A stretch of DNA of 64,000 nt from a virus, in the IMG/VR virus record IMGVR_UViG_3300045988_176106; one strand, written 5' to 3'. Shown here piece after piece: positions 32,416-50,392 of this stretch. The notes beneath the pieces were generated by a model. The model saw nothing but the letters and a program-made list of their open reading frames with translations, searched no databases and was not told where the DNA came from. Within the stretch, counting starts at the first letter, position 1. Each line of letters opens with the position of its first letter. The translations under genes and the position numbers were made by a program.

Positions 32416-32946
32416 ATGAATGCAATAGGTGTCAAATCAGGAAGCTTAATAATTCCATTTAACGATACTGATATAGAATTAGGTGGATATATCTATAGGA
32501 ATCTTATAGTTATTGCAAGAATGCTTAACTCCGTAGAGCTACAAAGAATACTTATGATGGATCTCGAGAGGGGTTATGTAAGAGAAGAGCTATACGAGGA
32601 TATATTTAGAGAATGCTATATATCAATTCCTGGAATAGTTGGAGATATAAATTTTGATGAGGCACCTGCTGGATTTATAACAACTGTCGCTAGTGTAATA
32701 CTATCTAAATCATTAGAGTATTCTACTGACCCACAAAAGGCATTTGAAAGAGATAGAGAATCTGTGTCTTTATTAGATCAAATGGCTGCAATAGTTTCCA
32801 GATATATGAACACTCCATACCTAGAAGTTGTAGAGCTTCCAGTAAATAAGTTATTTGAATTGTATGCAATATGTCATGCGACATATCCAGAGCATGTAAA
32901 AGAAATAGTTGTAGAAGAACCACAAAACAATATTCCTCCGGTGTAA
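32416..32946 (+). CDS. Tail assembly chaperone candidate
   Basis: 176 aa, immediately upstream of the giant ORFs. The call is by position only. Confidence 0.55.
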   Translation: MNAIGVKSGSLIIPFNDTDIELGGYIYRNLIVIARMLNSVELQRILMMDLERGYVREELYEDIFRECYISIPGIVGDINFDEAPAGFITTVASVILSKSLEYSTDPQKAFERDRESVSLLDQMAAIVSRYMNTPYLEVVELPVNKLFELYAICHATYPEHVKEIVVEEPQNNIPPV

Positions 32947-32948
32947 TC

Positions 32949-35900
32949 ATGTCAGCACAAAATTTAGCAGCAAATATATTTGGTCGCAAAGTATTTGACG
33001 AAGGTATACAACCAGGGGATGTAAAATCCCCATATAATATGTATACTTCAGACGATGTAAATACGTATGAAGATATACAGGCTACAAAAGAAATTATAGG
33101 CTCTATAACAAAGTATGGATTATCAGCAGGTGCATTATTTACAGTAAAAGAGCTACTAAAAAGACAAAGCGCACAAAATAAGCTTAGAGACTATATAACT
33201 CTAAGTTATCTATCTGAATCAATTAACGGAACAGCAGATGATGCTGTACGAGCATACGGCGGGAGAGTCACCTTAACGAACTTAGCAATGAATACTGCTA
33301 GGGCGTTTGAGGAGCTCTCCCCTTTTTCTATTTTAAAGACATTCCAAACATCTCATATTATGCAGCCGTTTGCAACAAAAACTGGCGAGCATTTCTTCAC
33401 ACCAGAATTATTAAAGTACCAGAAAAAATATTTCGAAGAGCTTGCACATAAGTATGGCAATAGAGGTATAACATCCGCCGACATATCTACAGGCATATTA
33501 TATAAAGACGGCAAATTATTTTCATCTAGTGGTGAAGAAATAATAAGCAATGCAAGACTTGTTACATCTGAATGGACAGGACATACAGGTGGCCATGATG
33601 AAGGGTCAATGTATAACAAAATTTTAAGAAGACATATCTTGCGTCATCAAGATATGAGTGCACAGTCAAGAAAAGAAATATTTGATTTGTCTAAAAATAT
33701 ACTTGATACAGAGGCACCATTTACTGTTATAGCAGATACAAAAGACACAAATATTAATAAAGGCTGGATAAAATCTGTAATAGGCCAAGGTGTAGCACAA
33801 GGCTTTAACATGGTTAATGAACCATTAGGATTCGTTGAAGAACTTGGTGGCACATTATTCAATGAAAACAATAGCGTATTTAGATTTATAAATAAATATG
33901 GGAAAATAAATCCGCATGCAAATGCGGATATGAAAATAGCCGACTTGGCAGTTGGTTACGTTAGGCATGGCGCTGTTAAACTTGGGATACTTGGTGCGGC
34001 ATATTATACATTAGATAATATGGCCAAGGTAATTGGAACAAGTGGTAGTGGATATGATCAGGGTATAATAGAGGGCGTATCTACAACGGCTGTAAATGCA
34101 AAAATAGCATATGCTGAAATGGTGTCAGATAGATTCGAAGAGTATACTACACAACAAGAATATGTTGCACCAGGATCAACATCATTATTAAGATTAGCCG
34201 GGTTCCCATTAGTAGGAGCTATGCTTGCAGGTACGGTAGCATATAGTAAGCGTGTAGTTCCATCTGTATTATCAGATGAGGGATATAAAGCTGGACAAAG
34301 AATGGCCCATACACAGGGCGATGTAATAAGTTCTGGAGTTTCACAGCTTGTAAGTAACACATCTATAGAGTCTTCATTGGGTAGAATAGGAAATACCAAA
34401 AAATGGGCAATGAGAGGTGCTTTAGCTGGACTTGCATTAGCATTACCATTTTTACCTGGAGCACTAGCTGGTGAATCATCTGATTCAATAAAAGACAGAT
34501 ATCTGTACGGCGAAGATGTAGAACAAAGATCAAATGCATTATGGTTTTCAGGATCAACAGATATAGAAGGTGGAGGTATAAAATACTTCACTAAAAACTG
34601 GTATCAAAGACTGATGGCCGGGAATAAAGACAAAATATTATATGGAGATGGGGATACAAAAGAGGAGCTTAATCCTTTTCTAAATCCAATAGATTATCTA
34701 CAAAATCCGTATAGACTTGAAGAAATGCATCAGGATGATATGCCTTATCCAATATGGGGTATGGATGTATCTGTTGGCGGATGGGCCGGTAAAATATTTG
34801 AACGAACAATAGGTCAAATAATAAAACCGGACAGAATAAATCCAAATATGGCGCAGTTAATGGAAAATCCTAATTCAATAGATCAGGATTACTACGCTAG
34901 TGATGAAAATTCATATGCATTCGCTTATAACTTCGGGGATATAACAAGAAAGCCTAGTTTTGAAGTTCCAGTAAATTACTCAAATGTAGAACAGTCATTA
35001 ATAAACGATGACATGATAACAAAAAGGAAGAATTTAACATATTCTCCATATGCAGAATCAGCGCAATATATATATAATTCTGCATCAGACTATATAGGTC
35101 TTAAAGGATGGGCTATATCAGGAGCTCTAAGTGAATTTGCTGTTGGAGATTTTTCTCAAAAGGATCAATTAGCAAGATCAGGTGAATCAACAAATGTAGC
35201 AAGAGAGTTTGTAGAGCAAAACCTTGGTGGATTATTCGGCGCAGCAGATATACTTCGCCGTATAGTTCCAATGTCATCTAGCGTATTGTATGATAGAGCT
35301 AATCCATTACATAATAGCGTTGCTCCATCTTGGCTTCCAAGTGGAGAATATTATACAAACTTTTCAAAGGGTAATTATTATGGACATGTTGATCTAGGCT
35401 ACGATAGAATGCCTGGATTAGGATATGAATATTATAACCCAGAAGTAAAAGGTTTAAATCTAGAAGATTATCCTGATATACATAAATTTAAAGTATTATC
35501 AGATGTTGCATACGGTTCAAGTGAATTCTATAACGCAAAAGAGCTAATGGAGTCTAAATATAACTCTGGAGAGATGACGGAATCTGAAATAGTAATATAT
35601 GAGACTACATGGGATCAATTACAAAGACGTGCGCAAAAGAAAACATTTGCAGAGTATAAAACGGACGAAGATTATGACAATGTATCGGTTGGTGGGGAAC
35701 TTCTTGGCAAATTATGGGAAACAATAACACATAATGCAGAACTTCCAACAGAAAGGCTTACATTCTTTAGACCTGCCGGTAAACTATTACACCAAAGAAC
35801 AGCAATAGAGGATTATGAAAAGACTCAACTTATTGCATCTGATACAGCATTATGGAATGAACCATTCAAGCATTTTATAAGACCATTTATGGAGGAAAGT

Positions 35901-36773
35901 TATAAAACTTTCGATAAATCATATATTCCTGAGCATACTCAAGAAAAAAGAAATATAGATAATTACTTTGATGCATTAGAATACTATAAACAAATGAAGG
36001 TTTATAGAGAAAACGCTAAAGGTAATTTATTTATGGCAAATCAGGCCAAAGCTAAAGCATATAAAACAACATATGGTGCATTAGCATCAGGACTAGATTC
36101 TGAATCAGATGTAAGTTCTGCATATATGGGTTTATCTAGCGAAGAGAAACAATACTTTACTTCATTCGTTAATGCAAAAGATTCCGATAGAGAAAGAATA
36201 GCGTCTATTGTCGATGGTAATAATATATCAGAAATATACAAGATGTTATGGAGTAGGAAGGATGTTATAGAGTCCGGAGGAGATATATCAGAATATCTTC
36301 AAGATGAAGAGCAGCAACTTATACAAAGCAATCGTCAAGTATACAATGCTTATGAAAGAAGTGGAGATGCCGATATAGGCATATCATTTAGGGAATATCT
36401 ACAAGAAAAAAGAGCAGAGAAACTTATAGTAGATGCAACAGGTATGCCTGACGAAGAATTTGCAGGATGGGACCCAAGATTAAATGTAAAAGATATAAAA
36501 CTTAGAACATTAAATATTGGTGGAGAGAATGCAATAGAATTCGGATACTATCAGGATGACCAAGATGATCTAAAAAGACAATCGGCAATATTAGCAGAAG
36601 ATCAAGTAACTACTCAATTAAAATCTATAAGAAGAACAAAAGCTCAGCAAAGATTTGATACCTCAAATATGATAAAAGATGAATTATATCGTAATGGTAT
36701 AAGAGCAGTAAATGTAAATATAAGCAATAGTGGTCATGGTGATTTTGATATGACCGTATATAATAGGCAATAA
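32949..36773 (+). CDS. Giant tail-internal/ejection protein candidate (1274 aa) with three hydrophobic segments in its first half
   Basis: I prefer the ATG at 32949 (2 nt after the upstream stop; MSAQNLAANIFG...) to the listed ATG at 32871. Hydrophobic segments GAVKLGILGAAYY, LLRLAGFPLVGAMLAGTVAY and ALAGLALALPFLPGALAG. The C-terminal two-thirds is aromatic-rich. Confidence 0.8.
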   Translation: MSAQNLAANIFGRKVFDEGIQPGDVKSPYNMYTSDDVNTYEDIQATKEIIGSITKYGLSAGALFTVKELLKRQSAQNKLRDYITLSYLSESINGTADDAVRAYGGRVTLTNLAMNTARAFEELSPFSILKTFQTSHIMQPFATKTGEHFFTPELLKYQKKYFEELAHKYGNRGITSADISTGILYKDGKLFSSSGEEIISNARLVTSEWTGHTGGHDEGSMYNKILRRHILRHQDMSAQSRKEIFDLSKNILDTEAPFTVIADTKDTNINKGWIKSVIGQGVAQGFNMVNEPLGFVEELGGTLFNENNSVFRFINKYGKINPHANADMKIADLAVGYVRHGAVKLGILGAAYYTLDNMAKVIGTSGSGYDQGIIEGVSTTAVNAKIAYAEMVSDRFEEYTTQQEYVAPGSTSLLRLAGFPLVGAMLAGTVAYSKRVVPSVLSDEGYKAGQRMAHTQGDVISSGVSQLVSNTSIESSLGRIGNTKKWAMRGALAGLALALPFLPGALAGESSDSIKDRYLYGEDVEQRSNALWFSGSTDIEGGGIKYFTKNWYQRLMAGNKDKILYGDGDTKEELNPFLNPIDYLQNPYRLEEMHQDDMPYPIWGMDVSVGGWAGKIFERTIGQIIKPDRINPNMAQLMENPNSIDQDYYASDENSYAFAYNFGDITRKPSFEVPVNYSNVEQSLINDDMITKRKNLTYSPYAESAQYIYNSASDYIGLKGWAISGALSEFAVGDFSQKDQLARSGESTNVAREFVEQNLGGLFGAADILRRIVPMSSSVLYDRANPLHNSVAPSWLPSGEYYTNFSKGNYYGHVDLGYDRMPGLGYEYYNPEVKGLNLEDYPDIHKFKVLSDVAYGSSEFYNAKELMESKYNSGEMTESEIVIYETTWDQLQRRAQKKTFAEYKTDEDYDNVSVGGELLGKLWETITHNAELPTERLTFFRPAGKLLHQRTAIEDYEKTQLIASDTALWNEPFKHFIRPFMEESYKTFDKSYIPEHTQEKRNIDNYFDALEYYKQMKVYRENAKGNLFMANQAKAKAYKTTYGALASGLDSESDVSSAYMGLSSEEKQYFTSFVNAKDSDRERIASIVDGNNISEIYKMLWSRKDVIESGGDISEYLQDEEQQLIQSNRQVYNAYERSGDADIGISFREYLQEKRAEKLIVDATGMPDEEFAGWDPRLNVKDIKLRTLNIGGENAIEFGYYQDDQDDLKRQSAILAEDQVTTQLKSIRRTKAQQRFDTSNMIKDELYRNGIRAVNVNISNSGHGDFDMTVYNRQ

Positions 36774-36775
36774 AT

Positions 36776-39700
36776 ATGGATCCAATTAAACAACCTAAAT
36801 TATTACTAGGTGGCGCAATAATAGGCGCTATGTCACAAGACCCAGAAGACCATCCAATAGCATCTGCATTAGGTATGGGAATAGGAGCTTATGTAGGTAA
36901 TTCACTGCAAATATCTAAAAGGGTATCTAGAGCTAGAAAAGAAATAGCAGACGATATATCATTTAACAGGGCTGACCTTTCTGGATACAGGGGATTGTCC
37001 AGAAGGGCAGCTAATAGGTTCGTAGATAAATTTGCTAGGAATGCAAAAGAAATGCATATGAATCTAAGTGCCCAAGCATATGCATCTCTAAATATAGGTA
37101 GATTTGGTAGTAACACAAGCAGTAGAGAAGCGCAGGTTGCTCTGTCTGAAATGCATAAACTTACACAACAAGGTATGCAGTCATACAAAGAGGCCGTAAA
37201 AAGAAACTTCTCAATGATATATGGACAAGATATAACATCTGTTATTGGCAATGATTTGTTCGACAATATATTTGAGTCATGGTTAAACAATAAAAACCTT
37301 GAGCAGATAAAACAAACATTGCCTACCCATATAAAAGATAAAAATGTGTTATCTGCTCTACTTAGCTCTTCAATGCCTAATGCAATAACGGGCGTATTAG
37401 ATGCAGAAACTGGACTCCTTATCCCTACATCTAGCCTACAAAAACTAAACCTTTCTAGTGTACCAGAAACAAACTTTAATAGAGGTAAATCTCTTGATCT
37501 AAGTATAAGTGCAACATCAGAACAAAAGACTGGTGCAATAAAAGAATATCTTGTAAAAGAACTTAATTATCCTGAAATAGAGGCATTTAGAGTAGCCTCA
37601 AATATAGGTAATAATACTGAAAACAGCAAGATAAGCTTTGAAGGTAATAAGATAAGTATAACAAAAGATGGTGTTACTGGCTCATTACATATGGAAGAGT
37701 ACAGTAAAGATGGATCTAAATTTGTATCTAAGGGCGGGAATATATATTCTGCTGAATCATATAATCAATTCCAGCTTCTTGGCGACAGTACAAAAGTAAA
37801 AGGCAATATATATACAAATACAAGTGGACCATTTTCATCATCATCTCCAGAAGTAAAATCACAAGTATTTACTCCTGTAGAGTCAATGCTATTTGAACAC
37901 TTAAATACAAATAAATCTCTTGAAGAGGTATCTAAGAAATTTTCTGACAGAATAGAATATATAGGTCCTAAAACAGATTTAGTAAAACTATCTGATATGC
38001 CTATAAAAAATAAACTTACTAATATAAGTGAACAATTTTACCGTAATGATATAACAAGAGAGATACAGGGTATAAGATCAATTAATGCAGAAGAGTATAA
38101 AAATATTATTGAAAATATAGAAATAGATAGGATGAGAAATGGCCTTAATCCTGGATTCAATAATATAAGACACTCTGACCAGGCAAAAGTGTTTATGGGT
38201 GATAATAATAAATCCGTATATACCGGCATAGTGTCATCTCCTGATCGTGATGCTACATATGCATCACGAGGAAATATATCTGTATCTGGTGATAATAGCG
38301 AGCTAAATAGAGCTGTTAAGGAATTATCAAATAGTGGTGTAGATGCATCATCATTTAATGGTGTTAAAAGTATAGGATTTAACGCTGTTGGATATGATTA
38401 CAACTATAGCTTAGGAAGCTGGGTAACTGGTACTGCTATAGGCGACGGCCAATCAATAATACAAGAGTCAGATTATACCGTTAGAAAAGCAACAACTATA
38501 TCACTTGGCAACAAAGATTTTGTAGCATCTAGTGATGCAGCAGAAAAGATACAGTCACTTATAAACGGTACAAATGAGGGACCGGTTACATTCAAAGGTG
38601 GAGAACTTTTAGGTTTTTCAAATGGCGAAGAAGTAAGGGCACCTAGACATTTTGAAACAGTAGAATTATCACAAGTAGTAAACTCTGCAGGAAAATATAA
38701 ACTAATTGGTGCCGGCACATCATCTCTATCAAACAATGATGACAACATTGTAAAACTATTCGGAGATCTTAAATCTAATGCAATCGTATTGGATAAACAT
38801 TCTTATAGAAAAGCCATGTACGGATATGCAATGTCAGAACTTGGACTTGTATCAGCAGATACTTCAAACGGGCTTAAGTTTTCTATAAATAAGTTTAGCG
38901 AAATAGGTAAGAATAATTTTCACGCTTTAGTAACTGGACTTATGGCTGCAGATGAAGAGCTGGGAAATACAGGAGAAGGAACTAAAAAATTCTTCGATAG
39001 ACTTCTAAACCTTGTAGACACATCTGATAATAGCAATGCTAGAAGAATACGAGAATATCTTGAAAATAATTCTAGTATAAATTTTGGCGCACAATGGATG
39101 GTTAGAGGATCTGACACGAAAATAGGTTCACAGATATCTGAAGCAGATAGGGCTATTAGAAAGTATAGATTTAGCCCTGATCAAGATACCCTAAAGAATA
39201 TAGTAAATAGAATAGTTGATTCTACAGAATTAGATTCCGAAGGCAGAATAAGTCCAGCAGGAAGAGAATTCGCTAGAATCAAAAAAGAAATAGACGTTTC
39301 TGGTAAGGTTAGTGATGCTAACCAATCTAAACTTATAGGTGCTATATTCGCAAACAATGCGATGTCAGATGGTAAATCGTCTCAAACAGCAATGTCTACA
39401 ATGATAGACATGATAAGTAAAATTGGCTCACAAGCTAACTCTACTGTAAAATTAAATCTTGCCGGGGTTGATATAGATGTAGATCCTAATAATATAGAAA
39501 AAAGTATAGCTAAATATATCAAAGAATCATCATCAAGAATGATTGACTATTCAAATGGCAGAATAAGTCCAGATGATATGTTTAAATCATTACAAGATGA
39601 TTTTTCATCATTATATGGAACTATAAGAAAAAATAATAGGACTGCATTAGGTATGAGTTCATTTGGTGTATTACAAGAGGGCACAAGGGAACTTACAGGT

Positions 39701-41770
39701 TCTAATACTGTAAAAGCAACTATGGACTGGATGGCATCAGATCAACTTAGAGCAGCTGGACTATCTATGGAGTCATTAGAATTACTTGGCGAAGCAAATG
39801 AAGATGCTAGATATGAGCTAAGGTCTAGGAAACTACAAACAATGGTCGAAGGACAAAGTATAGATTCTATATTTGGAGATGATCCTAAGGCTATAAGAGA
39901 CTTATTCGAATCTAGAAATAGAGAAGAATTTGCTGCTAAACATCTGAGAGATCTCGTAAACAATGATGGGGTTGCATCTGTTAAATTAGTAGTTCCAGAT
40001 GGAATGTCATCTAAAAAGATAGGATTAAAATCTTTATCTATAAATCTCCTGAACAGTGATAATAGCGGTATAAAAGATATAAATGGATCAGACGTTATGG
40101 CTGATATAGATAAGCTAAAACGTAATACCCTAGTGTCAATGATGGAATATCAAAGAGCTATCAGAGATGGCGAAAACCAAAGGTATATAGATATAGCAAA
40201 AGAATCATATCTAAAGGATCTTGAAGAACTTAAGGCAAAATTAAAATCTACCAATACTACAGTAGCAAAAGCTGCCACAAGAAGAACTGCCAGAAATGGT
40301 GTTACTGCAACTGCAATTTCTTTAACAGGCGCTGCAGAAATTATAAGGGCAGAAGAGGAGAAAGCTGGACGTAATGCTGTATTCTTAAATGAAGAGACTG
40401 CTAGAGCATTAGGATTTAAACTAAACAGAAAATCTAAATCTCCGTATGAAATAAAAAATAGTTTAGGCTTAGTAATACGTACACCTGCATCAAGTTCATT
40501 AAGTGCACAGGCTGTAACATTCTTTGTTGATCCATCTATAAAGCAAAATGGTACAGTTATATCTATGGGCGAAAACCAGTTAGCATCAGCATCTGGGGAC
40601 CTTGATGATGACAAAATACATGTATTTAGAGCAGACGATATAAATAACCCTAAATTAAATAAAGAATTAAGAAACTTGATGAGATTACAAAATGATATAT
40701 TTGTAAATGAAAAAGAGTTCTTAAAAACATTTAATACAAAAATGGCGGAGATGGAACAATATGGAGTTGTAAATCCTTTAAAGTCTGGAGCAAAAACTGT
40801 TGCAGAAGATCAATTCCAGGAAAATATACTTAAACAGGTTAAATCTCAGCAACGTAAATTTAGTGCTGCTGAGATAACCGAGTTCCAACAGCTACTATCT
40901 CAATCAATAGAAAGTAAAAGAAGAGCTGACTTATCTGAAGCTGTAAAAGTATTAGGGATTGATGATCCTGCTAGGAAAGTTATAGAAGATTCTATTAATA
41001 AAAGAGCATTTATGGCTCAGGCTGTAGCCGGAGCAATGCAAGAGAACGTACTTAAAACTGTTCGTTCTGGATCAAATGCGAATTCATTATTAGAAACTAT
41101 AGCATCCATGAGGGAATCTGCAGGTAGTAGTAGGTTTGCATCATATAGCCAAATAGGTGAATGGGTAAAAGGTGTAACCCCTGAAATATTTAACGGCGCA
41201 GAACACTTTGTCGATATTGGTAATTTTATAGGAGATGCAGTATCCACATATGGCGCTGATATAACTCTAAATAATCCAAATATGGTTGGTTCTAAATATA
41301 CTGGTAAACAGGCTGATAAAATAGAGGCAGCAATACCTAGAATACCAAAAACAGTGGCAAGAGAAGCAGATATTAGCCAAGAAGTATTGTCAAAAGCTGC
41401 AACTAATGCTACTATTGATACTGCTACTGATATAGGAAATCAAATTATTTCAACTATAAAAGCTAACAAGAAATCAATACTCTTAGGTGGATTAGGATTA
41501 GGAATAGTAGGATTAACAGTTGGGGCAGAGTCACCAAGTACAACCTCTCCAATGTATAATTCTCCTACTGCAAGAACAAATCCTACATTGCCAGTAATAG
41601 AAAACAATTCTGCATACATAACAGATGGCGCACAGGCACAATCTGTATCAGTTGCCGGATATCAAATAGATAATAGAAGTAACGACAGATTGAAGCAGTC
41701 ATTAAGAAGTATGCTTCAAGGTGATTCTGTGTCAAGAAGTACAATTAGGTTCCAGAATCAAAATTATTAG
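36776..41770 (+). CDS. Tape measure protein candidate (1664 aa)
   Basis: Directly upstream of the gpD-like hub gene, as in P2/Mu-type tails. Long, largely helical/low-complexity sequence. Gly-zipper segments at the N-terminus (LLLGGAIIGAMS, ALGMGIGAYVGN) and near the C-terminus (ILLGGLGLGIVGLTVGA). Confidence 0.5.
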   Translation: MDPIKQPKLLLGGAIIGAMSQDPEDHPIASALGMGIGAYVGNSLQISKRVSRARKEIADDISFNRADLSGYRGLSRRAANRFVDKFARNAKEMHMNLSAQAYASLNIGRFGSNTSSREAQVALSEMHKLTQQGMQSYKEAVKRNFSMIYGQDITSVIGNDLFDNIFESWLNNKNLEQIKQTLPTHIKDKNVLSALLSSSMPNAITGVLDAETGLLIPTSSLQKLNLSSVPETNFNRGKSLDLSISATSEQKTGAIKEYLVKELNYPEIEAFRVASNIGNNTENSKISFEGNKISITKDGVTGSLHMEEYSKDGSKFVSKGGNIYSAESYNQFQLLGDSTKVKGNIYTNTSGPFSSSSPEVKSQVFTPVESMLFEHLNTNKSLEEVSKKFSDRIEYIGPKTDLVKLSDMPIKNKLTNISEQFYRNDITREIQGIRSINAEEYKNIIENIEIDRMRNGLNPGFNNIRHSDQAKVFMGDNNKSVYTGIVSSPDRDATYASRGNISVSGDNSELNRAVKELSNSGVDASSFNGVKSIGFNAVGYDYNYSLGSWVTGTAIGDGQSIIQESDYTVRKATTISLGNKDFVASSDAAEKIQSLINGTNEGPVTFKGGELLGFSNGEEVRAPRHFETVELSQVVNSAGKYKLIGAGTSSLSNNDDNIVKLFGDLKSNAIVLDKHSYRKAMYGYAMSELGLVSADTSNGLKFSINKFSEIGKNNFHALVTGLMAADEELGNTGEGTKKFFDRLLNLVDTSDNSNARRIREYLENNSSINFGAQWMVRGSDTKIGSQISEADRAIRKYRFSPDQDTLKNIVNRIVDSTELDSEGRISPAGREFARIKKEIDVSGKVSDANQSKLIGAIFANNAMSDGKSSQTAMSTMIDMISKIGSQANSTVKLNLAGVDIDVDPNNIEKSIAKYIKESSSRMIDYSNGRISPDDMFKSLQDDFSSLYGTIRKNNRTALGMSSFGVLQEGTRELTGSNTVKATMDWMASDQLRAAGLSMESLELLGEANEDARYELRSRKLQTMVEGQSIDSIFGDDPKAIRDLFESRNREEFAAKHLRDLVNNDGVASVKLVVPDGMSSKKIGLKSLSINLLNSDNSGIKDINGSDVMADIDKLKRNTLVSMMEYQRAIRDGENQRYIDIAKESYLKDLEELKAKLKSTNTTVAKAATRRTARNGVTATAISLTGAAEIIRAEEEKAGRNAVFLNEETARALGFKLNRKSKSPYEIKNSLGLVIRTPASSSLSAQAVTFFVDPSIKQNGTVISMGENQLASASGDLDDDKIHVFRADDINNPKLNKELRNLMRLQNDIFVNEKEFLKTFNTKMAEMEQYGVVNPLKSGAKTVAEDQFQENILKQVKSQQRKFSAAEITEFQQLLSQSIESKRRADLSEAVKVLGIDDPARKVIEDSINKRAFMAQAVAGAMQENVLKTVRSGSNANSLLETIASMRESAGSSRFASYSQIGEWVKGVTPEIFNGAEHFVDIGNFIGDAVSTYGADITLNNPNMVGSKYTGKQADKIEAAIPRIPKTVAREADISQEVLSKAATNATIDTATDIGNQIISTIKANKKSILLGGLGLGIVGLTVGAESPSTTSPMYNSPTARTNPTLPVIENNSAYITDGAQAQSVSVAGYQIDNRSNDRLKQSLRSMLQGDSVSRSTIRFQNQNY

Positions 41771-41779
41771 GAATAAGAA

Positions 41780-44700
41780 ATGTCAAGATTTACCTTTTCA
41801 ATAAATGGAATATTGGATATAGAACCAGTTTCTGTTGATAAAGTCAATAAATTTTATACAACACAAAATGAGTTCTTAAGGGACACATCTGTATTGACAT
41901 CTAAATCTCGATTTGCGGAGTCGCTACATTTAGCGACTTTCGCATTCGATTTGTCTAAAAGTGATAGTGTCGAAGAAATGTGTGACCTAATATCTATATG
42001 TAGGTCATTCCCATATATGTTCATAAGGTGTGAAGCTATGGGAACATCAGACTTAAGTATGCTAGGCTTAAGTATTGGTGATGGATACTTCATGTACGCA
42101 CTGCATGAATATGAAATTGAATTAGGTGCATCAGACAATATGCAAGGGATGGCTTTTGTATCTTTAAGATTACAAACTATCAACTGGAAACCTCTAGCAA
42201 AAACAATAAAATTCATATCTATAAATCAGCAATCTGAGTCAGAAAACAATTCTAAATCAATCTCCTCTAAATCTAAAAAATCCGGAAAATATAAAACAGA
42301 GTACGAGTTAAATCCTGGCGACTCTAACTTAATGAAAAAGTTAGTAGACTTTTACAGAAGGGATGTTGACAACTACAAAACACAAATAATAAATCAAGGT
42401 TACAATAGAGACTTTGACCTTTATCTTGGATACCCTATTGTATTTACAGATGCAGTTAAGTTGCATCGTGAATTACATGACTTATGTTGGGGAGAAGCAA
42501 GAACTTTTAGAATCCTTAAAAAAGTTGATTTGGCCGGAACAGATGCAAAAGATGGTCAACAAACAAATGCGAATATATCTGAAGTAAAATCTGATGAAGA
42601 AGTTAGATTTGATGAAACAGGTAGAATAAATGTAGGGTGGAAAAGAGAATTAATAGGCGGAACTAATTCTACAAAAAATAAAGATAATGTAGCAATACAA
42701 TCTATAAATATAAGAAGACGTAATAGATTTGCTAACCAAACAATACAGGATTTTAGTTATCCATATTGCCAATATCTTGGACACTCTCCTACAGAAATAA
42801 ATATATCAACAGTGACAAATCATGAAGAAGGAATGGATGCGGCATCTGCTGCAATGGCAATTGACCGCGTAGATGAATTTACAAAAAATATTAGAGTTAC
42901 ATATCCTGCATTAAAAGGTTTAGATGTTATAGCTATTGAAAATCCAATAGTTAATGCTATGGGTGTAAAATATGTAATAATAGATTCATCTCAGTCATCT
43001 ACAACTGGAAACATGAATAATATTATTACAAATAACTATTCATTTGTAGAGTCTGATTCTACAGACTTCTTGGAGAATAGTAAATTTGTAAAAGCTTCAA
43101 GTAAGGAAGCTTATAACGATATATTAGCTCAAGCAGAGACAATAAAAGATCTGCTAGCAATGGCCAATATAGAATCTAAAAAGGGTGCTAACACATCATC
43201 ATTAAAAGATGTGCTTGATAAGATAAACAAGCCTATAATAAAGGCTATTGATGAATATAAAGTTTATATAGATTCGGCAGTTAAAAAGGCTGATGATCCA
43301 ACAGCTGATATAGGCTTATTCCTTGAACCTATGCTTAGAAGCAAAAAGTATAAAAACATGACAGACACAGAAAAGTCTACAATGTTTATCAAGGAATACC
43401 TAAAAGCAATAAAAAGTCATTCGGCAACACAGTCTGAGGAAAGGGTTTTAAGAGAGCGTCTTAGAAGCTTTGAACAGGCAGTTACAAGAGCATATAAGGA
43501 TGCTCTTGGTAGCTCATTTAATAAATACACTATTGATGCATTATCTAAAGACCTAGAAAAAGAAAAAGAATACTATAAAACTCATAAAAGTAGTACATCT
43601 TTTTCTGGTGAAGCAATTCCAGATATGAAATATAAAGAAATATTTCATGATATGCCAAAAACAGAAGAGTATTCTTCATATAGAGATTTGCCATCATTGC
43701 CATTCGTGTATGACCAACAAATATTTGATGGCGAAAAGATAATGGCCAAATGGGAACAATCTTCTCCGCTTATAGATGAGATACTTGAAGATACAAATTC
43801 TATGGTGAATGGACCTGGAAGCAGCACTGACAGAACAAATAACTTCACAAAGGTCAACGCTGTTGCATCATCTGGAACTATAAATCCAGACGGAACTGTA
43901 TCTGCCGGCAGTGTAGATAGTGTAAATGGACAACTAGATGCTAAAACACTTAAAGGTGCACAATTAGGTGTACATGGTGCATCTGGAATATGGCTAAAAG
44001 ATTTATCATCAATAATGAAATATGTTCGTATATCGTCTCCTTTTGGTATGAGACGCGGAGGATTTCATCATGGCATAGACTTAGCTGGTCCAACAGGAAC
44101 TCCTATATATGCAGCAGCAGCAGGTAAGGTTACTGTAGCTTCCAATAGAGGAAGAGGTGGTAACTCTGTATATATTCAACATTCTGGGGGTATAACAACA
44201 TGGTACATGCACTTAAGTGCTTTTGCTGTTAAACCTGGACAACCTGTAATAGCTGGCCAACTAATAGGATTTTGTGGAAGCACTGGACATTCAACTGGCC
44301 CACATTTACATTATCAAGTAAATATAAACGGCAAGCCTGTAGATCCTGCCGCATTCCATAATTCAATAAATGGAGTAGCACGTCAAAGCAATCAACAAAA
44401 TATCACTCCTCCAGATTCAATCAAGAAGAAAAGTTGGTTAGAAAACCTTGGTGCATCAATTGCCGGAACCAATGGACAATCTGCAATAGGGTTAGGTATA
44501 ACTCCTGCAGGATCAGATAAGCAAAAAGCAAAAGATGGATTGGCATTGCCAAAAGAATCAGCAGCTATGCAATCTGCAGTCGCCAATGGATACCAACCAT
44601 TTACAGACTATAATTCTTATAATCTAGGTAAAAGCGGAGACCTTAAAGGTGTAGCAGCAGCATCTAGTGCTGGGTTTACAAGCCAAAAAGGTACATCACT

Positions 44701-47700
44701 TATAAATAGCACATTGCTTAGAGACTATGCAGGATCAATAGCAGCAATAGAGTCAAGGGGAAGATTAAATCCTACTGGAAATGAATCATATTTAGGTATG
44801 TATCAAATAGGTCTAGATGGACTTATGGATATAGGATGGATAAGAAAAACAGCTCCAAGACATAAATCATCGTTATACAATGATGCATATTGGACAATCC
44901 CAGGAGGATATAAAGCCTTTATATCTAGTAGAGAATTACAGGACCAAGCATTTGTATTATATACTCAGAAGAACATAGATTACTTGTCTGCTAAGCCTGG
45001 ATGGAATAAATTAACATTCCAGGATAAGGTATTGGCATTAGCTATGTCACATAATGGTGGACATAGCGCAGGATGGAAAGCGTTACAGGGCAAAGATAGT
45101 TATGATGGAAATCGTACATCTAGACAGCAATATGGTAGAGTCGCAATGTCTCTTTCAGCAGCTGTTGCAAAAGGTACTGCAGGTGTCGGCATGTTCAGTA
45201 GAGACGCTGCAGGGTATACATCAAATTATTATGACAATGTAGCTGTACAGCGTAATAATGAGTCAGTAGAATTTAATACCGATCCTACGCCTTGGGATCC
45301 TGAACTTCAAGGTAAGGCAAGAATTTCTAACATGGTAAAAGATTACACATGGGGGCTTGAGAAACTTATTCCAACATATAAGGTTTATCTTGTCCATGGT
45401 AATAATGAAAATACATTATTTAAACTTATAAATACCAGTGTGGAAGCAGTATATTATGAAATATCTACTGTAAGGAATATCCGTGTAGAAATGGCAAACC
45501 AAGATAATCCTGTTGCTGTTGCATACTTTGAAGTCCTAAACTCTTTAAATACATCAACAGATCCAACTACTGGTTATAATACTGCAGATAAACTTGGTAA
45601 TACTAAACTTGATATAACATCATTAGGAAGTGATTTTGCCAATGTAGTTGCTATGGATCAAATAAGACTTAAAGCAGGTAATAAAGTTCAAATAAGAATG
45701 GGTTATGGCAACAAAATAGATGACCTACCTGTAATCTTTAATGGTCTTATTACAGAGACAGATGGCGGAGACGTTGTAAGAGTTGTAGCAGAAGGATACG
45801 GAAGAGAACTTCAAAATGAGTTAATATTTGCCGGAGATGTATTGCCATTTACTACCTTTGCTAGTGATACTTCTGGTAGATATATTTCTGCAGCAATTGC
45901 AAGAATAGTTAAGAATGCTAGACTTCAACATTTTGGTGCAAACCCAAAAATTCTTGGAGAGGATGTAGATACAAACTCTACAGGAACTGCAGCTCAAGGA
46001 GTATCTGGACAAAGCGGATTCTCATTATCTAACTCACTATGGAATTCCGAATCAGGTGAATTCTTCTTCTACGATTTTAAAGGTCCAACTGATCATTTAG
46101 AAAACTTCTGGCTGATGAACGTTGATATGGTTGATAGATTCTTCGTTACAGAATGGAATGATTTATTTCCATTCTCTCTTAACGACTATTTTGTTAATTT
46201 CCCCGTTTTAAATAAAACAGTATGGGATGTCATAACAACAGGAAGAAGATTATTCCCTTCATCAGTATCTCTTGTTAAAAACATAGGTGCTAGATGCACA
46301 TTATTTACAGGAATAAAAGAACAGCTAATGGTAGGTTATGAAACTACACATTCTGTTGCATCAGAAGTATTTAGTAATATAAATGGCGGACTACTAGATA
46401 AAGAAGAGCAACATGCTCAAGAGGTTGAAGAGGTAGCAAATGCTACAAATATAAAAGGTAGTTTGGGCATCCCTGTAAATACAACCAATGGTATAAAGAA
46501 AAGACAAAAAGAAACAACAGCTAAATTTGAGGTGCTAAGAGATAATCCTGGACAAGTTGCAGATGCTGTAAGTTCTGTCATGGATTCAAGAACTATAGAC
46601 CCAACTGCATGGGTTCCTGCTACAAACTTCCATATGTTTAGTAGTGCTACTAATATAATTAGTAATCAGCTTAGATTAAATCAGGATATTATTACACAGG
46701 CAAATGTCGAGTATGGTTCAGACCCAGGAGACTTTGGAACTGGTAAAAACAAAATGTTCGATATGAAAAGTAATGGTGGATTAATGCCAGCATTCGTTAA
46801 ATCATCTTATCTAAGTGATAGCACATTAAATACAGAAGGTATGGCTATAAAAACTGGACAAGGATATCTTCTTGAAGAGTTAGAAAAAATGTATACCGGA
46901 AGTGTAATAATATCTGGAAATCCAGATGTTGCTCCAGGAGATTATGCTTATATATCTGACTCATTAAGACAGATGAGTGGTGTAATGAAGTGTAGGGAAG
47001 TTCAACATATCTTGACTGAAGACGACGGATATATTACAATAATTACACCAGGAATGTTTGTTGAACCTGCAACACATTTATATTCTTCACTGTATATCAA
47101 GCTAGGAATGTTCTATTCTATGTTAGCTCAAGGTCAGAGAGAATATGCTCTTGTATCTGTAAACTCATCACCAACTGGTGAGATGTACAGCAAGTTATCA
47201 ATAGCTCCTACTAATATAGGCTTTTGGAGTGTTGGATGGGCTACGGCAGGATCATTAGCATCAGTAGCTGCATCTGGAATGTTGCTTAAAACAGCCGCAA
47301 CTCGTATATCTGCTGCATTATGGGGTCCGATAACAGGTCATATAGCATCTGGATGGGCACGATTTAGTAAGGTAAACTTCATAGTAAGAGGTTTATCATC
47401 TATGAAAGGTGCATTAGGTGGAGTATGGGCAAGAATCGTAACAGCAGGAAGAACTATAAGTACAGCAATAAATGCTGTGAGAACTGTTGGAATTGTATCT
47501 AGTATAGGTTCGGGTGGACTTATAATGGCAGCTGGTATAACAATAATTGTAGCAGCAGTAGTTATAGCTGTATGGGGTATTCTTAAAAATGTTTGGGAAG
47601 CAAACAAGGAAAGAATAACCATGAGACATAGAGCGTTAATGAAAATGCCATTAACTGTATATGGTCAAGAATATACAGCTGGTCTATTAGGATGGAATGA

Positions 47701-47836
47701 TGAATTAAGTCCTATAGAACTTCAGGTTAGAAACCTTAAAACCACATGGGAGAATTTAGCTAAAGTGTGGGGAGCTACAAAAGATACAAGTGCATCAACA
47801 AAAGCCAGAATATTATATTCAATAGCGACTGACTAA
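41780..47836 (+). CDS. Giant baseplate hub fusion (2018 aa): unknown N-terminal region + M23 peptidase + lytic-transglycosylase-like domain + gpD/gp27-like hub + C-terminal transmembrane cluster
   Basis: AGGA 8 nt upstream of the ATG. The domain motifs are listed in the three sub-features below. The hub-type ending reads ISGNPDVAPGDYAYISD...MSGVMKCREVQHILTEDDGYITIITPG. Confidence 0.85.
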   Translation: MSRFTFSINGILDIEPVSVDKVNKFYTTQNEFLRDTSVLTSKSRFAESLHLATFAFDLSKSDSVEEMCDLISICRSFPYMFIRCEAMGTSDLSMLGLSIGDGYFMYALHEYEIELGASDNMQGMAFVSLRLQTINWKPLAKTIKFISINQQSESENNSKSISSKSKKSGKYKTEYELNPGDSNLMKKLVDFYRRDVDNYKTQIINQGYNRDFDLYLGYPIVFTDAVKLHRELHDLCWGEARTFRILKKVDLAGTDAKDGQQTNANISEVKSDEEVRFDETGRINVGWKRELIGGTNSTKNKDNVAIQSINIRRRNRFANQTIQDFSYPYCQYLGHSPTEINISTVTNHEEGMDAASAAMAIDRVDEFTKNIRVTYPALKGLDVIAIENPIVNAMGVKYVIIDSSQSSTTGNMNNIITNNYSFVESDSTDFLENSKFVKASSKEAYNDILAQAETIKDLLAMANIESKKGANTSSLKDVLDKINKPIIKAIDEYKVYIDSAVKKADDPTADIGLFLEPMLRSKKYKNMTDTEKSTMFIKEYLKAIKSHSATQSEERVLRERLRSFEQAVTRAYKDALGSSFNKYTIDALSKDLEKEKEYYKTHKSSTSFSGEAIPDMKYKEIFHDMPKTEEYSSYRDLPSLPFVYDQQIFDGEKIMAKWEQSSPLIDEILEDTNSMVNGPGSSTDRTNNFTKVNAVASSGTINPDGTVSAGSVDSVNGQLDAKTLKGAQLGVHGASGIWLKDLSSIMKYVRISSPFGMRRGGFHHGIDLAGPTGTPIYAAAAGKVTVASNRGRGGNSVYIQHSGGITTWYMHLSAFAVKPGQPVIAGQLIGFCGSTGHSTGPHLHYQVNINGKPVDPAAFHNSINGVARQSNQQNITPPDSIKKKSWLENLGASIAGTNGQSAIGLGITPAGSDKQKAKDGLALPKESAAMQSAVANGYQPFTDYNSYNLGKSGDLKGVAAASSAGFTSQKGTSLINSTLLRDYAGSIAAIESRGRLNPTGNESYLGMYQIGLDGLMDIGWIRKTAPRHKSSLYNDAYWTIPGGYKAFISSRELQDQAFVLYTQKNIDYLSAKPGWNKLTFQDKVLALAMSHNGGHSAGWKALQGKDSYDGNRTSRQQYGRVAMSLSAAVAKGTAGVGMFSRDAAGYTSNYYDNVAVQRNNESVEFNTDPTPWDPELQGKARISNMVKDYTWGLEKLIPTYKVYLVHGNNENTLFKLINTSVEAVYYEISTVRNIRVEMANQDNPVAVAYFEVLNSLNTSTDPTTGYNTADKLGNTKLDITSLGSDFANVVAMDQIRLKAGNKVQIRMGYGNKIDDLPVIFNGLITETDGGDVVRVVAEGYGRELQNELIFAGDVLPFTTFASDTSGRYISAAIARIVKNARLQHFGANPKILGEDVDTNSTGTAAQGVSGQSGFSLSNSLWNSESGEFFFYDFKGPTDHLENFWLMNVDMVDRFFVTEWNDLFPFSLNDYFVNFPVLNKTVWDVITTGRRLFPSSVSLVKNIGARCTLFTGIKEQLMVGYETTHSVASEVFSNINGGLLDKEEQHAQEVEEVANATNIKGSLGIPVNTTNGIKKRQKETTAKFEVLRDNPGQVADAVSSVMDSRTIDPTAWVPATNFHMFSSATNIISNQLRLNQDIITQANVEYGSDPGDFGTGKNKMFDMKSNGGLMPAFVKSSYLSDSTLNTEGMAIKTGQGYLLEELEKMYTGSVIISGNPDVAPGDYAYISDSLRQMSGVMKCREVQHILTEDDGYITIITPGMFVEPATHLYSSLYIKLGMFYSMLAQGQREYALVSVNSSPTGEMYSKLSIAPTNIGFWSVGWATAGSLASVAASGMLLKTAATRISAALWGPITGHIASGWARFSKVNFIVRGLSSMKGALGGVWARIVTAGRTISTAINAVRTVGIVSSIGSGGLIMAAGITIIVAAVVIAVWGILKNVWEANKERITMRHRALMKMPLTVYGQEYTAGLLGWNDELSPIELQVRNLKTTWENLAKVWGATKDTSASTKARILYSIATD
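44030..44347 (+). other. M23 (LytM-type) metallopeptidase domain
   Basis: SSPFGMRRGGFHHGIDLAGPTGTPIYAAAAGKV...YMHLS...GSTGHSTGPHLHYQVNINGKPVDP, containing the HxxxD and HxH zinc ligand motifs. Confidence 0.85.
44714..45076 (+). other. Lysozyme-like / soluble lytic transglycosylase-like domain
   Basis: GSIAAIESRGRLNPTGNESYLGMYQIG...AFVLYTQKNIDYL...ALAMSHNGG: an E-S catalytic-type motif followed by G-x-x-Q. Confidence 0.6.
45362..47066 (+). other. gpD (P2) / gp44 (Mu) / gp27 (T4)-like baseplate hub region
   Basis: NKVQIRMGYGNKIDDLPVIFNGLITETDGGDVVRVVAEGYGREL plus the family-typical C-terminal pattern G-x-P-x-(V/L)-x-P-G-D ... V-x-H ... GY-x-T. Confidence 0.6.
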
Positions 47837-48826: not shown

Positions 48827-49245
48827 TGTTAATAGAAGAAATAAATAAAGATATTATAACCGATGACTATGGTGACGTTATAATGCATAACGGAGACATA
48901 TATACATCATCTAATCAAAATCTTATTGCGCTGACAAATGCCAGACACAGATTAATGTCTGGATCATCAGATATGTACCTGTACAATATTTATGGTGCAA
49001 ATCTTCACAAATTTATAGGAAGACCGGTAACTGATTCTTTAGCTAGAGAAATTGTTAATAGTATTAAAAATTCTTTTACAGAAGATAAATTCTTTTCTGG
49101 CGATAACTTCCAAATAAACTATGTACTTGATGGACAAAAAATATTATTTAAGATTGCAGTAGGAACAGATTATCAATTTACAAGAAATAAACAATCAGAG
49201 GTGAATATAGTATTTTCACCTGTAACCGGAGTTTCTTATGTATGA
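48826..49245 (+). CDS. Baseplate wedge protein, gpW / gp25-like
   Basis: 139 aa. NLIALTNARHRLMSGSSDMYLYNIYGANLHKFIGRPV fits the gp25/W signature shape (L-x-T/S ... YG-x-x-L ... G-x-P). Positioned between the spike and the J-like gene. Confidence 0.55.
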   Translation: MLIEEINKDIITDDYGDVIMHNGDIYTSSNQNLIALTNARHRLMSGSSDMYLYNIYGANLHKFIGRPVTDSLAREIVNSIKNSFTEDKFFSGDNFQINYVLDGQKILFKIAVGTDYQFTRNKQSEVNIVFSPVTGVSYV

Positions 49246-50392
49246 TCAATTAACTAATAAAGAGTTAATGACTCAAGAAATATCTGCGCGAATTAGTGAG
49301 AATACCGGTATTAACAATACCTCTAAATCCACTGTAGTAAGACATATTACAGACGCAATAACAGATACAGCAGTAAATCTTGTTGCATATTCCAATGCGG
49401 CAATAAATTCTACACATACACAATATGCTTCTGGTGATCTATTGACAAAGAATGCATATGAATTTGGTGTAGTAAGGAATATATACTCTGATGTATACAT
49501 TTCTAAAGATGATGCAATAGTTAATTTAGTAATGAGTGATGGATCAAAATTCCCTAAATATATGGATGGGAAAATAATAATAGAAGCTGGTAAAGTCTTC
49601 TTATTTGGTAGTGGTACATCAATAGAGGTTACTGAAAATGTATATGCATCTCATAATGAAACATCTATACCTATTCCAGCAAGAATAACTACATCCGATT
49701 CAACCGATATAAAGACCGGAACAAAAATAGATATATCAGATGATTCTAATCCAGTAACGATTGGTACATCTATATCTATAGACAGTAGTGTTTATACAAA
49801 TCTTTCTGAAGAGTCAGATGATAGTCTTAGAAGAAGAACAGTGTATTCTAAGATGCGAGTACACGGATCATCAGATTATTCTATAAGAGGAATATTATCA
49901 GGTATACCTACTGTTAGGTCTAGCAAAATAGTAAGAAAGCCTAATGATAGTAAAACATATATCTATATAACAACAGATAATTATCTTAAAAACTTTATAG
50001 ATGAGAATTATTCATTTATAAAATCTAAGATAGTGTCTGAGATGGATTACTTATCATCATCTGAACAGTCATTTGATGTGTTGATGCCAGAGGTATTATT
50101 ATTAGACGTATATTTTAAATATAAGAATACAACATCAAATATGGCAATGTCGGCCATTAATGAGTCTTTTAATTCTATATACACTCCTCTAATAACAGGT
50201 AATATAAATTTTGAAGATCTAGTTAAAGAAGTTAATACATACGGATTAGATATAACAATAGAGCATATTATAATACGGTCAGATATATATGGCACAATTG
50301 CAGATATATCATCTGGAGATTTTGCTGTACCAGATACAGCAATATGTGCATTAAGTCAGGCTACATCTATAGGTTTAGAAGAATCGGAATAA
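49238..50392 (+). CDS. Baseplate J-like (gp6/gpJ family) wedge protein
   Basis: 384 aa. NAAINSTHTQYASGDLLTKNAYEFGVVRN resembles the Baseplate_J A-x-G-x-x-L-D ... G-(V/L)-x-R motif. Synteny is W-like then J-like. Confidence 0.55.
   Translation: MYDQLTNKELMTQEISARISENTGINNTSKSTVVRHITDAITDTAVNLVAYSNAAINSTHTQYASGDLLTKNAYEFGVVRNIYSDVYISKDDAIVNLVMSDGSKFPKYMDGKIIIEAGKVFLFGSGTSIEVTENVYASHNETSIPIPARITTSDSTDIKTGTKIDISDDSNPVTIGTSISIDSSVYTNLSEESDDSLRRRTVYSKMRVHGSSDYSIRGILSGIPTVRSSKIVRKPNDSKTYIYITTDNYLKNFIDENYSFIKSKIVSEMDYLSSSEQSFDVLMPEVLLLDVYFKYKNTTSNMAMSAINESFNSIYTPLITGNINFEDLVKEVNTYGLDITIEHIIIRSDIYGTIADISSGDFAVPDTAICALSQATSIGLEESE

Follow-up and report, generated by a model that had tools for sequence, protein, structure and literature searches.

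Ordinary baseplate hub proteins are small: P2 gpD has 387 amino acids (aa), Mu gp44 has 379, and T4 gp27 has 391, in agreement with the 350-400 aa that an earlier note on the present DNA had taken as normal. In T4, the central tail-tip complex (gp27-gp5) carries the peptidoglycan hydrolase needed for entry, but on a separate spike protein, gp5, while the Tal proteins of lactococcal siphophages join a gp27-like N-terminus to a C-terminal M23 domain, thus one enzyme on a much smaller fusion. To our knowledge, T4 gp27-gp5 and the Tal proteins lack both a hydrophobic tail and any initiator-like module fused to them. The subject of this work is a 2018-aa protein encoded in the IMG/VR virus record IMGVR_UViG_3300045988_176106, of which a stretch of 64,000 nucleotides (hereafter, the window) was analyzed. 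Judging from its sequence relationships and gene position, it is best read as a baseplate hub equipped with peptidoglycan hydrolases. With reasonably good confidence, the gene is attributed to the central baseplate hub of a contractile-tailed phage of ~140-190 kb, from the lineage of phages ME3 and 0305phi8-36, in which a conserved scaffold would carry exchangeable enzymes.

Multi-enzyme hubs have already been documented. In Hardies et al. 2007 (PMC2147016), gp147 of Bacillus phage 0305phi8-36 is called a 'hyperplastic homologue of T4 gp27', whose transglycosylase, NlpC/P60, and M23 domains are exchangeable. There, gp147 is placed in the P2 gpD/T4 gp27 family by hidden Markov models (HMMs) (SAM E 6.5e-8, HHsearch E 0.015-0.11), with only gp27 domains 1 and 3 being matched. 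The hub gp15 of cyanophage A-1(L) contains lysozyme, endoglucanase, and peptidase domains, and has two hydrolytic activities in vitro (Nat Commun 2024, PMC10966104). The best cultured relative of the 2018-aa protein is gp37 of the Acinetobacter jumbo phage vB_AbaM_ME3 (KU935715), a 2329-aa 'baseplate hub protein', for which the literature searched yielded no study of function or structure. The earlier note had seen an unusually self-sufficient device in the pairing of two wall-cutting domains on a hub, a view that gives way before gp147, A-1(L) gp15, and the architecture of ME3 gp37. The enzyme-laden hub is not a new concept and, because self-carried wall-cutting enzymes have been described in other phages, the window protein is real but largely expected. 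Nothing here overturns the current understanding of phage hubs. What is modestly new is the reading of the N-terminus as initiator-like, the cassette behavior of a lysin slot, an uncurated muralytic family, and a conserved hydrophobic tail.

From the N- to the C-terminus, the protein would comprise two tube-fold-like domains and a helix-rich region, resembling an initiator of the Mu gp43 class; an M23 metallo-endopeptidase; a probably lysozyme-like, glycan-cleaving domain in an exchangeable slot; a hub core of ~640 aa, as the putative counterpart of T4 gp27, P2 gpD, and Mu gp44; a hydrophobic segment; and a small C-terminal domain. The corresponding features are as follows.

41780..47836 (stop codon 47834-47836), + strand: whole gene, coding for the 2018-aa predicted 'hyperplastic' baseplate hub protein (open reading frame list, translation).
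41780..42259, + strand: D1 (aa 1-160), the first of two domains that are beta-rich and tube-fold-like, including a long helix (AlphaFold2 secondary structure, conservation, HMM).
42608..43099, + strand: D2 (aa 277-440), second beta-rich, tube-fold-like domain (AlphaFold2, HMM, Foldseek).
43100..43879, + strand: region rich in helices (aa 441-700), which can be compared with the helix-rich domain of initiators of the Mu gp43 type (AlphaFold2, Foldseek).
44015..44389, + strand: Peptidase M23 domain, aa 746-870 (PF01551, PDB matches, conserved zinc ligands H763, D767, and H844).
44654..45187, + strand: second putative muralytic domain, aa 959-1136 (family search, alignment, sub-threshold Pfam and NCBIfam matches).
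45257..47179, + strand: conserved predicted hub core, aa 1160-1800, in which ~aa 1521-1610 form a variable insertion (conservation profile, hmmsearch).
47222..47602, + strand: hydrophobic Gly/Ala-rich cluster, aa 1815-1941 (hydropathy scan).
47612..47833, + strand: conserved C-terminal domain, aa 1945-2018, with a RHR..K.P..VYGQEYTAGL.GWN motif (alignment columns R1949-Q1982 invariant or near-invariant).

Among the described systems, ME3 gp37 offers the closest comparison: it has the same gene position and the same order of blocks (D1/D2, M23-containing enzymes, hub core, hydrophobic segment, and C-terminal region), but is only 21-38% identical, and its slot holds a staphylococcal nuclease (SNase) domain and an M23 domain instead of M23 and a lysozyme-like domain. 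Phage 0305phi8-36 gp147 shares the giant size (1903 aa), the exchangeable peptidoglycan-degrading domains, the hub core, D1/D2, and the position after the tape-measure gene. It differs by an N-terminal transglycosylase, as indicated in the 2007 paper (PMC2147016), by C-terminal NlpC/P60 and M23 domains, and by having no hydrophobic segment after the hub. A-1(L) gp15, compared by description and not by sequence, is also a myophage hub (trimeric in A-1(L)) with a barrel core decorated with wall hydrolases, although it is ~900 aa long and relies on a separate hexameric tube initiator, gp18 (PMC10966104).

The open reading frame (ORF) is unbroken, with an ATG start, 2018 codons and a stop, and an AGGA sequence lies 8-9 nt 5' of the ATG. 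Near-identical proteins are found in a protein-database cluster of the same length (P0001, 2018 aa, 205 members, 99% identity) and in another of 2013 aa (P0002, 92% identity), and the C-terminal 1064 aa are encoded on five IMG/VR contigs at 93-100% identity. The same unbroken ORF occurs in relatives at 92%, 41-49%, and 21-28% identity, including in the cultured phage ME3; full-length homologues have 1958-2484 aa, and each of the relatives found, of 1770-2484 aa, is encoded by a single ORF. Since near-identical full-length proteins exist in other assemblies and the relatives are single ORFs, this ORF is not an assembly artefact. The concern, raised in the earlier note, that a sequencing or assembly error had joined separate genes found no support, the ORF being merely unusually long; it is effectively refuted by the intact ORF in independent assemblies, in divergent relatives, and in ME3, and its likelihood is practically nil.

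The attribution to hubs relies in part on aa 1160-1800, the best-conserved part of the protein, which we regard with good confidence as a gp27-class hub. With a profile of this block, hmmsearch detects gp147 at aa 850-1010 (independent E-value, iE, 3.2e-16) and aa 1343-1408 (iE 1.2e-9), as well as all the relatives. ME3 gp37 matches the hub plus C-terminal region with E 1.4e-51 and the N-domain with E 6e-14, M23 being common to both. Direct profile comparisons of the hub block with hhalign reach E 0.015 for T4 gp27 (residues 285-351) and E 0.026 for Mu gp44 (residues 293-332), and both alignments fall on the same colinear C-terminal block (aa 1687-1756); the comparisons, which also took in P2 gpD, are borderline overall (E 0.015-0.087). 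An AlphaFold2 model of aa 955-2018 was computed from an alignment of hub homologues, short lysozyme-domain sequences being left out. With this poor model, Foldseek first retrieves VgrG-like hub-spike proteins, namely 8v3w_H (diffocin baseplate H), 7aef_q (Algoriphagus), and 6j0m_A (PVC), along with tube proteins, at E 0.009-0.05, which is suggestive only.

Several observations weigh against this attribution. No Phage_GPD match (PF05954) was obtained in Pfam searches of the query (E ≤ 1) or of 12 homologues (E ≤ 5), and a PDB profile search with the hub-block alignment returned no match. The AlphaFold2 model of aa 955-2018 is unreliable, with a predicted local distance difference test (pLDDT) score of 36.5. 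The hhalign comparisons are underpowered, as the controls indicate (gp44 family vs. P2 gpD, E 0.005; vs. T4 gp27, E 0.24), and two IMG/VR scans made to enlarge the gp44 family yielded only relatives at 65% identity or more. Finally, the 2007 paper (PMC2147016) gives no residue coordinates, so that the gp27-like region of gp147 could correspond to D1/D2. The gpD/gp27-like hub region proposed in the earlier note, thus, obtains nothing from the PF05954 test, while the assignment survives, in a qualified form, by transitive homology through gp147, by gene order, and by weak structural and profile signals.

Gene order can be read from the tail module, which includes the following two neighbors.

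36776..41770, + strand: 1664-aa gene in the tape-measure position, directly 5' of the hub gene (position and size as ME3 gp36 and 0305phi8-36 ORF146).
49238..50392, + strand: baseplate wedge (gp6/gpJ-like) gene (phrog_6 'baseplate wedge subunit', E 1.3e-11).

The hub gene thereby lies between a gene in the tape-measure position and wedge genes, which is the location expected of a gp27/gpD/gp44 hub gene, as in the gene orders of Mu and P2. The 1664-aa gene resembles ME3 gp36 (1603 aa) and 0305phi8-36 ORF146, a 'hypothetical tape measure protein', in position and approximate size; it has no detectable similarity to any PHROG, any Pfam family, or ME3 gp36. This absence of similarity to ME3 gp36 is seen although the neighbors on both sides match ME3. 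The 1664-aa product has a single hydrophobic segment, near its C-terminus (aa 1567-1586).

This neighborhood also bears on whether the 2018-aa protein itself could be tape-measure-like, or an internal tail protein that is ejected, comparable to T5 pb2 or to the mycobacteriophage tape measure proteins (TMPs) with M23/lysozyme motifs and hydrophobic segments. Several PHROG matches fall in families with the label 'tail length tape measure protein', tblastn finds matches in the TMP genes of siphophages, and the C-terminal hydrophobic segment is TMP-like. Nevertheless, the TMP-labelled matches nearly all cover M23 only (~aa 738-873), with the exception of phrog_4211, which spans aa 144-873. Strands are abundant in the N-terminal 440 aa and, in the poor AlphaFold2 model, in parts of aa 1160-1800, with no extended helical ruler, and the TMP position directly upstream is held by the separate 1664-aa gene, as in ME3 and 0305phi8-36. 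With beta-rich domains, enzymes, and an already occupied TMP position, a tape-measure identity was rejected and is considered very improbable.

Returning to the hub reading, its first enzyme is certain as far as sequence assignment is concerned. PF01551 matches aa 762-856 over profile positions 2-96 of 96 (E 1.1e-33, 115.7 bits vs. a cut-off of 28.7 bits), and M23 enzymes of the PDB match the domain with E 6e-28. The nearest NCBIfam models are those of the Gram-negative DD-endopeptidases Pgp3, MepM, and ShyA. The HHGID and HLH strings, from which the domain had originally been recognized as an M23 endopeptidase, start at aa 763 and aa 842, and the HxxxD/HxH motifs (H763-x3-D767, H811, and H842-L-H844) are each at least 90% conserved among homologues, so both the family and the zinc ligands bear that recognition out.

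The second enzyme domain, aa 959-1136, is less easily classified. Two of its strings, AIESRG at aa 989 and GMYQIG at aa 1006, had suggested a lysozyme/SLT-like domain. An exhaustive search assembled a family of 302 representative proteins at E ≤ 1e-3, in which the domain is found in proteins of 150-4400 aa, usually C-terminal in those of 600-1000 aa, and sometimes with CHAP; one member (P0182) has it fused behind a T4 gp5 OB domain. Invariant positions in the family alignment are E991-S992, G1006, Q1009, G1011, W1038, Q1054, N1065, H1091, G1094, and D1109, the invariance of E991-S992 and G1006..Q1009.G1011 having been assessed over 23 members. Sub-threshold matches to PF06737 (Rpf-type Transglycosylase-like) occur in 13 of these 23 members (best E 3.2e-5) and to SLT in three, and weak sub-threshold NCBIfam matches to AggPromo_Cterm (aggregation-promoting-factor C-terminal) were also obtained. 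We consider that the domain is probably lysozyme-like and glycan-cleaving.

Against a firmer statement, aa 959-1136 of the query has no Pfam match even at E ≤ 10, nor any PDB match by query sequence or family profile, and for the family every model in Pfam, NCBIfam, and the PDB stays below threshold. The hhalign comparisons of the family were not significant with the SLT-type domains of its own homologues (E 0.17), nor with the P0005-type and P0004-type domains, T4 lysozyme, or hen lysozyme, which leaves the domain with no significant link to any characterized lysozyme. Because only sub-threshold matches were found, none in the PDB, and hhalign was not significant, the lysozyme-like nature is called probable and not proven. 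The proposal of the earlier note, therefore, holds for the motifs and for the existence of a genuine family; it does not hold for a Pfam SLT domain, and lysozyme nature depends on sub-threshold matches. With 302 representatives and no curated model, this group constitutes a candidate new muralytic family.

This domain occupies a variable part of the protein. In the conservation profile, aa 880-1160 are ~12% identical among homologues vs. 40-75% in the flanking blocks. The slot (44390-45256, aa 871-1159) holds unrelated enzyme domains across the database relatives P0003-P0018, which are 41-49% identical overall (21% for P0018). Its contents in homologues are a Pfam-positive SLT (PF01464), a 'GESGG..AVGKYQT' domain, a weak Phage_lysozyme2-like domain (assigned from a sub-threshold PF18013 match), or a second M23. 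In distant relatives, the region 5' of the hub core encodes SNase and M23 (ME3 and L062), M23 and SLT (L066), or VanY (L067), and two further relatives (L056 and L058) possess an uncurated domain of the aa 959-1136 type plus M23 upstream of the hub core. Such variation points, at the sequence level, to cassette-like domain replacement. The pre-hub slot would then be a natural cassette site, in which enzymes of at least six kinds occur: M23, SLT, weak Phage_lysozyme2-like, SNase, VanY, and the uncurated E-S/GxYQxG family. In L066 (IMGVR_UViG_3300022663_000182), the M23 (aa 387-474) and SLT (aa 551-666) domains are located between D1 (aa 66-228) and D2 (aa 774-889), whereas the enzymes of the window protein follow the helix-rich region; the sites of enzyme insertion, therefore, differ within the family.

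The N-terminal ~740 aa had been noted as a region without a nameable motif, a description superseded by structure prediction, which places it in a recognizable fold class. In the AlphaFold2 model of aa 1-745 (pLDDT 60, predicted template modelling score 0.54), a long helix is part of each of two beta-rich units (aa 1-150 and 277-424), and helices follow at aa 448-676. In D2, strands at 277-347 precede a helix (354-374) and further strands (384-424), with a CQYLG motif at aa 330, while D1 is the most conserved N-terminal block. The best Foldseek matches of the model in the PDB are 9ki1 chains u and 0, 8fqc_U1 (Milano), and 9rku_A1 (7-7-1), with E 3.6e-5 to 3.2e-4 over 318-364 columns, and the identity of 9ki1_0 as Mu gp43, also named DNA circularisation protein N, was confirmed. 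Initiators of the Afp7/Pvc7/Cis7 type come next, along with tube proteins and T5 tail-tip proteins, of ~300 aa. In BFVD, the model matches fragments of giant phage proteins (E 1.3e-14 to 5e-12), one of which is named 'Baseplate hub protein', as well as 'DNA circulation, N-terminal' (E 7.4e-6), DUF6046, LysM-domain, and Dit-like proteins. Mu gp43 is a hexameric tube initiator made of one domain that is tube-like and one that is rich in helices (PMC11915804). In terms of predicted structure, the N-terminal 700 aa of the window protein look like a tail-tube initiator of this class, and the order initiator-then-hub mirrors the adjacent Mu genes 43 and 44. Nevertheless, Mu gp43 and gp44 are two proteins in a 6:3 stoichiometry (PMC11915804), bear no enzymes, and have no sequence-level similarity to the window protein.

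This resemblance also has points that count against it. The N-terminal model is only moderate (pLDDT 60, with Foldseek TM-scores of 0.14-0.23), and a PDB sequence-profile search with the N-terminus gave nothing. With hhalign, the N-domain shows no sequence-level likeness to Mu gp43 (E 0.056-0.23) and no match to P2 gpU, T4 gp48/54/19, or the tube proteins of the phage itself. The Pfam scan of the query gave only Peptidase_M23 and a chance TCTP match, with no DNA-circulation or LysM family.

At the sequence level, D1 and D2 HMMs detect gp147 at aa 259-404 (iE 1.6e-12) and aa 498-618 (iE 1.6e-6), respectively, as well as all the other relatives; the module is, therefore, lineage-wide. In gp147 (L002, ORF147), D1 and D2 stand upstream of the hub core, and they are not described in the accessible portion of the 2007 paper (PMC2147016). 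Besides the post-hub segment, P0018, L056, and L058 possess a strongly hydrophobic Gly/Ala-rich segment (~aa 583-681) in the helix-rich N-terminal region, which is missing from the window protein.

The conservation of D1 and D2 raises the question of where the hub ring is located. The gp27/gpD-like ring could be formed by D1-D2 (aa 1-440), two tube-fold domains per chain making a trimer pseudo-hexameric, in which case aa 1160-1800 would be a lineage-specific part, for example a spike adaptor or a membrane-penetration body. Indeed, gp27-type hubs are defined by two tube-like domains, D1 and D2 are kept in gp147 upstream of its core block, and Phage_GPD was matched nowhere. Moreover, Hardies et al. 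report matches to gp27 domains 1 and 3 only, with no coordinates (PMC2147016). However, the 50 best Foldseek matches of the N-terminal model include no gp27, gp44, or VgrG chains, tube initiators and tube/Dit-like proteins being in the lead, and VgrG-like hubs appear for the aa 955-2018 model only. Comparisons by hhalign of D1, D2, and the N-domain with gp27, gp44, and gpD give E ≥ 0.12 vs. E 0.015-0.026 for aa 1160-1800, in colinear C-terminal positions, and the N-to-C order of the protein matches the Mu gene order, gp43 then gp44. A D1-D2 hub is, thus, judged improbable, and aa 1160-1800 is retained as the likely hub core.

With the hub core placed there, a mechanism can be proposed. A trimer of the hub protein would close the distal end of the tube, the spike being encoded downstream. 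Sheath contraction would drive the hub complex through the outer layers, where M23 would cut peptide cross-links and the lysozyme-like domain glycan strands, creating a local hole. The hydrophobic segment, hidden in the virion, could then insert or anchor at the cytoplasmic membrane and help to form a DNA conduit. The analysis establishes the intact ORF, the M23 domain, the gene order, and the conservation of each block throughout the family, while the hub fold, lysozyme activity, trimer, and membrane insertion are inferred.

The number of tube-fold domains per chain is central to the stoichiometry of such an assembly. If D1 and D2 both adopt the tube fold, a trimer could supply a pseudo-hexameric initiator ring, which would solve the 6:3 mismatch of the Mu type. 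Two such domains per chain are weakly suggested by the AlphaFold2 secondary structure, by Foldseek matches of ~300-aa proteins over ~400 columns, and by the hhalign comparison of D1 with D2 (E 0.044). Extended to the whole lineage (0305phi8-36, ME3, and the present phage), a single trimeric chain might build two stacked pseudo-hexameric rings (the D1+D2 initiator and the gp27-like hub), with the wall-cutting enzymes placed between these rings, and its terminal segment, by inserting into the membrane, would become part of a DNA conduit across the envelope. We regard this two-ring arrangement as tentative and rather doubtful. If true, one chain would unite three or four functions of the baseplate and of ejection that are normally separate.

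The same mismatch could be dealt with by proteolysis. T4 gp5 is known to cleave itself and, by analogy, the 2018-aa product could be a polyprotein, from which maturation cleavage frees the initiator-like part, the lysins, and the hub, so that the fusion would be genetic only. The enzymes are indeed surrounded by low-complexity, poorly conserved, low-confidence linkers (aa 681-745, 871-958, and 1137-1160), and cleavage would reconcile a hexameric initiator with a trimeric hub, the mismatch seen in Mu (PMC11915804). However, neither a protease motif nor a conserved site of cleavage was identified, every relative examined (1770-2484 aa) keeps the fusion as a single ORF, and two tube-like domains per chain would provide an alternative solution to the stoichiometry. 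A polyprotein is, on this evidence, an unlikely explanation, and a hub acting as one chain is preferred.

The hydrophobic cluster noticed at the C-terminus was confirmed by hydropathy: a strong transmembrane-like segment covers aa 1899-1941, with a 19-residue Kyte-Doolittle mean of up to 2.76, and a weaker one covers aa 1818-1836. The post-hub segment is kept in most relatives, including ME3 gp37, and is absent from gp147, L059, L063, L064, and L067. For large myophages, a hub whose tail is conserved and transmembrane-like would be relevant to the way in which they traverse the inner membrane. More generally, testable structural assignments become available for two parts of the giant genes annotated as 'hub' or 'peptidase', namely their first 700 residues and their C-terminal segment.

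The remainder of the tail module is consistent in its organization with the ME3/0305phi8-36 lineage. Between coordinates 243 and 60350, every ORF of at least 130 aa is on the + strand, bar a few embedded antisense ORFs. Upstream of the hub gene are a tail sheath gene (phrog_16991, E 1e-68), then two tube-family paralogues, three small (chaperone-like) genes, a 1300-aa gene, and the 1664-aa gene; 3' of it are small genes, followed by the gp6/gpJ-like wedge gene. The module is colinear with gp30-gp46 of ME3, the only cultured phage with a matching sheath (39.6% identity). Its layout is also that of 0305phi8-36 ORF145-151 (virion protein, hypothetical tape measure, hub, gpV-like, and gpJ-like), where the hub is annotated 'baseplate hub protein; contains proteoglycan degrading domains'. 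A downstream 222-aa gene was considered as a gpV-like spike and not retained; PHROGs, Pfam, and the PDB lend no support to this assignment, which is positional only.

Two further features of the module can be mentioned. The second tube-family paralogue (463 aa; 29694-31085, + strand) possesses a C-terminal SNase domain (aa 330-449), with E 4e-8 to thermonuclease and a match to phrog_452 'endonuclease'. In ME3, an SNase domain is found on the hub protein, and the 2007 paper (PMC2147016) reports the same for BtI1; within this lineage, the nuclease thus seems to shift from one tail protein to another. Lastly, a 176-aa ORF (32416-32946) and the 1300-aa ORF (32871-36773), both on the + strand, share 76 nt that are read in different frames. 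The 1300-aa ORF may truly start further 3', or else the overlap reflects translational coupling or a frameshift beside the chaperone-like genes; in ME3, gp34 and gp35 abut with no overlap of this kind.

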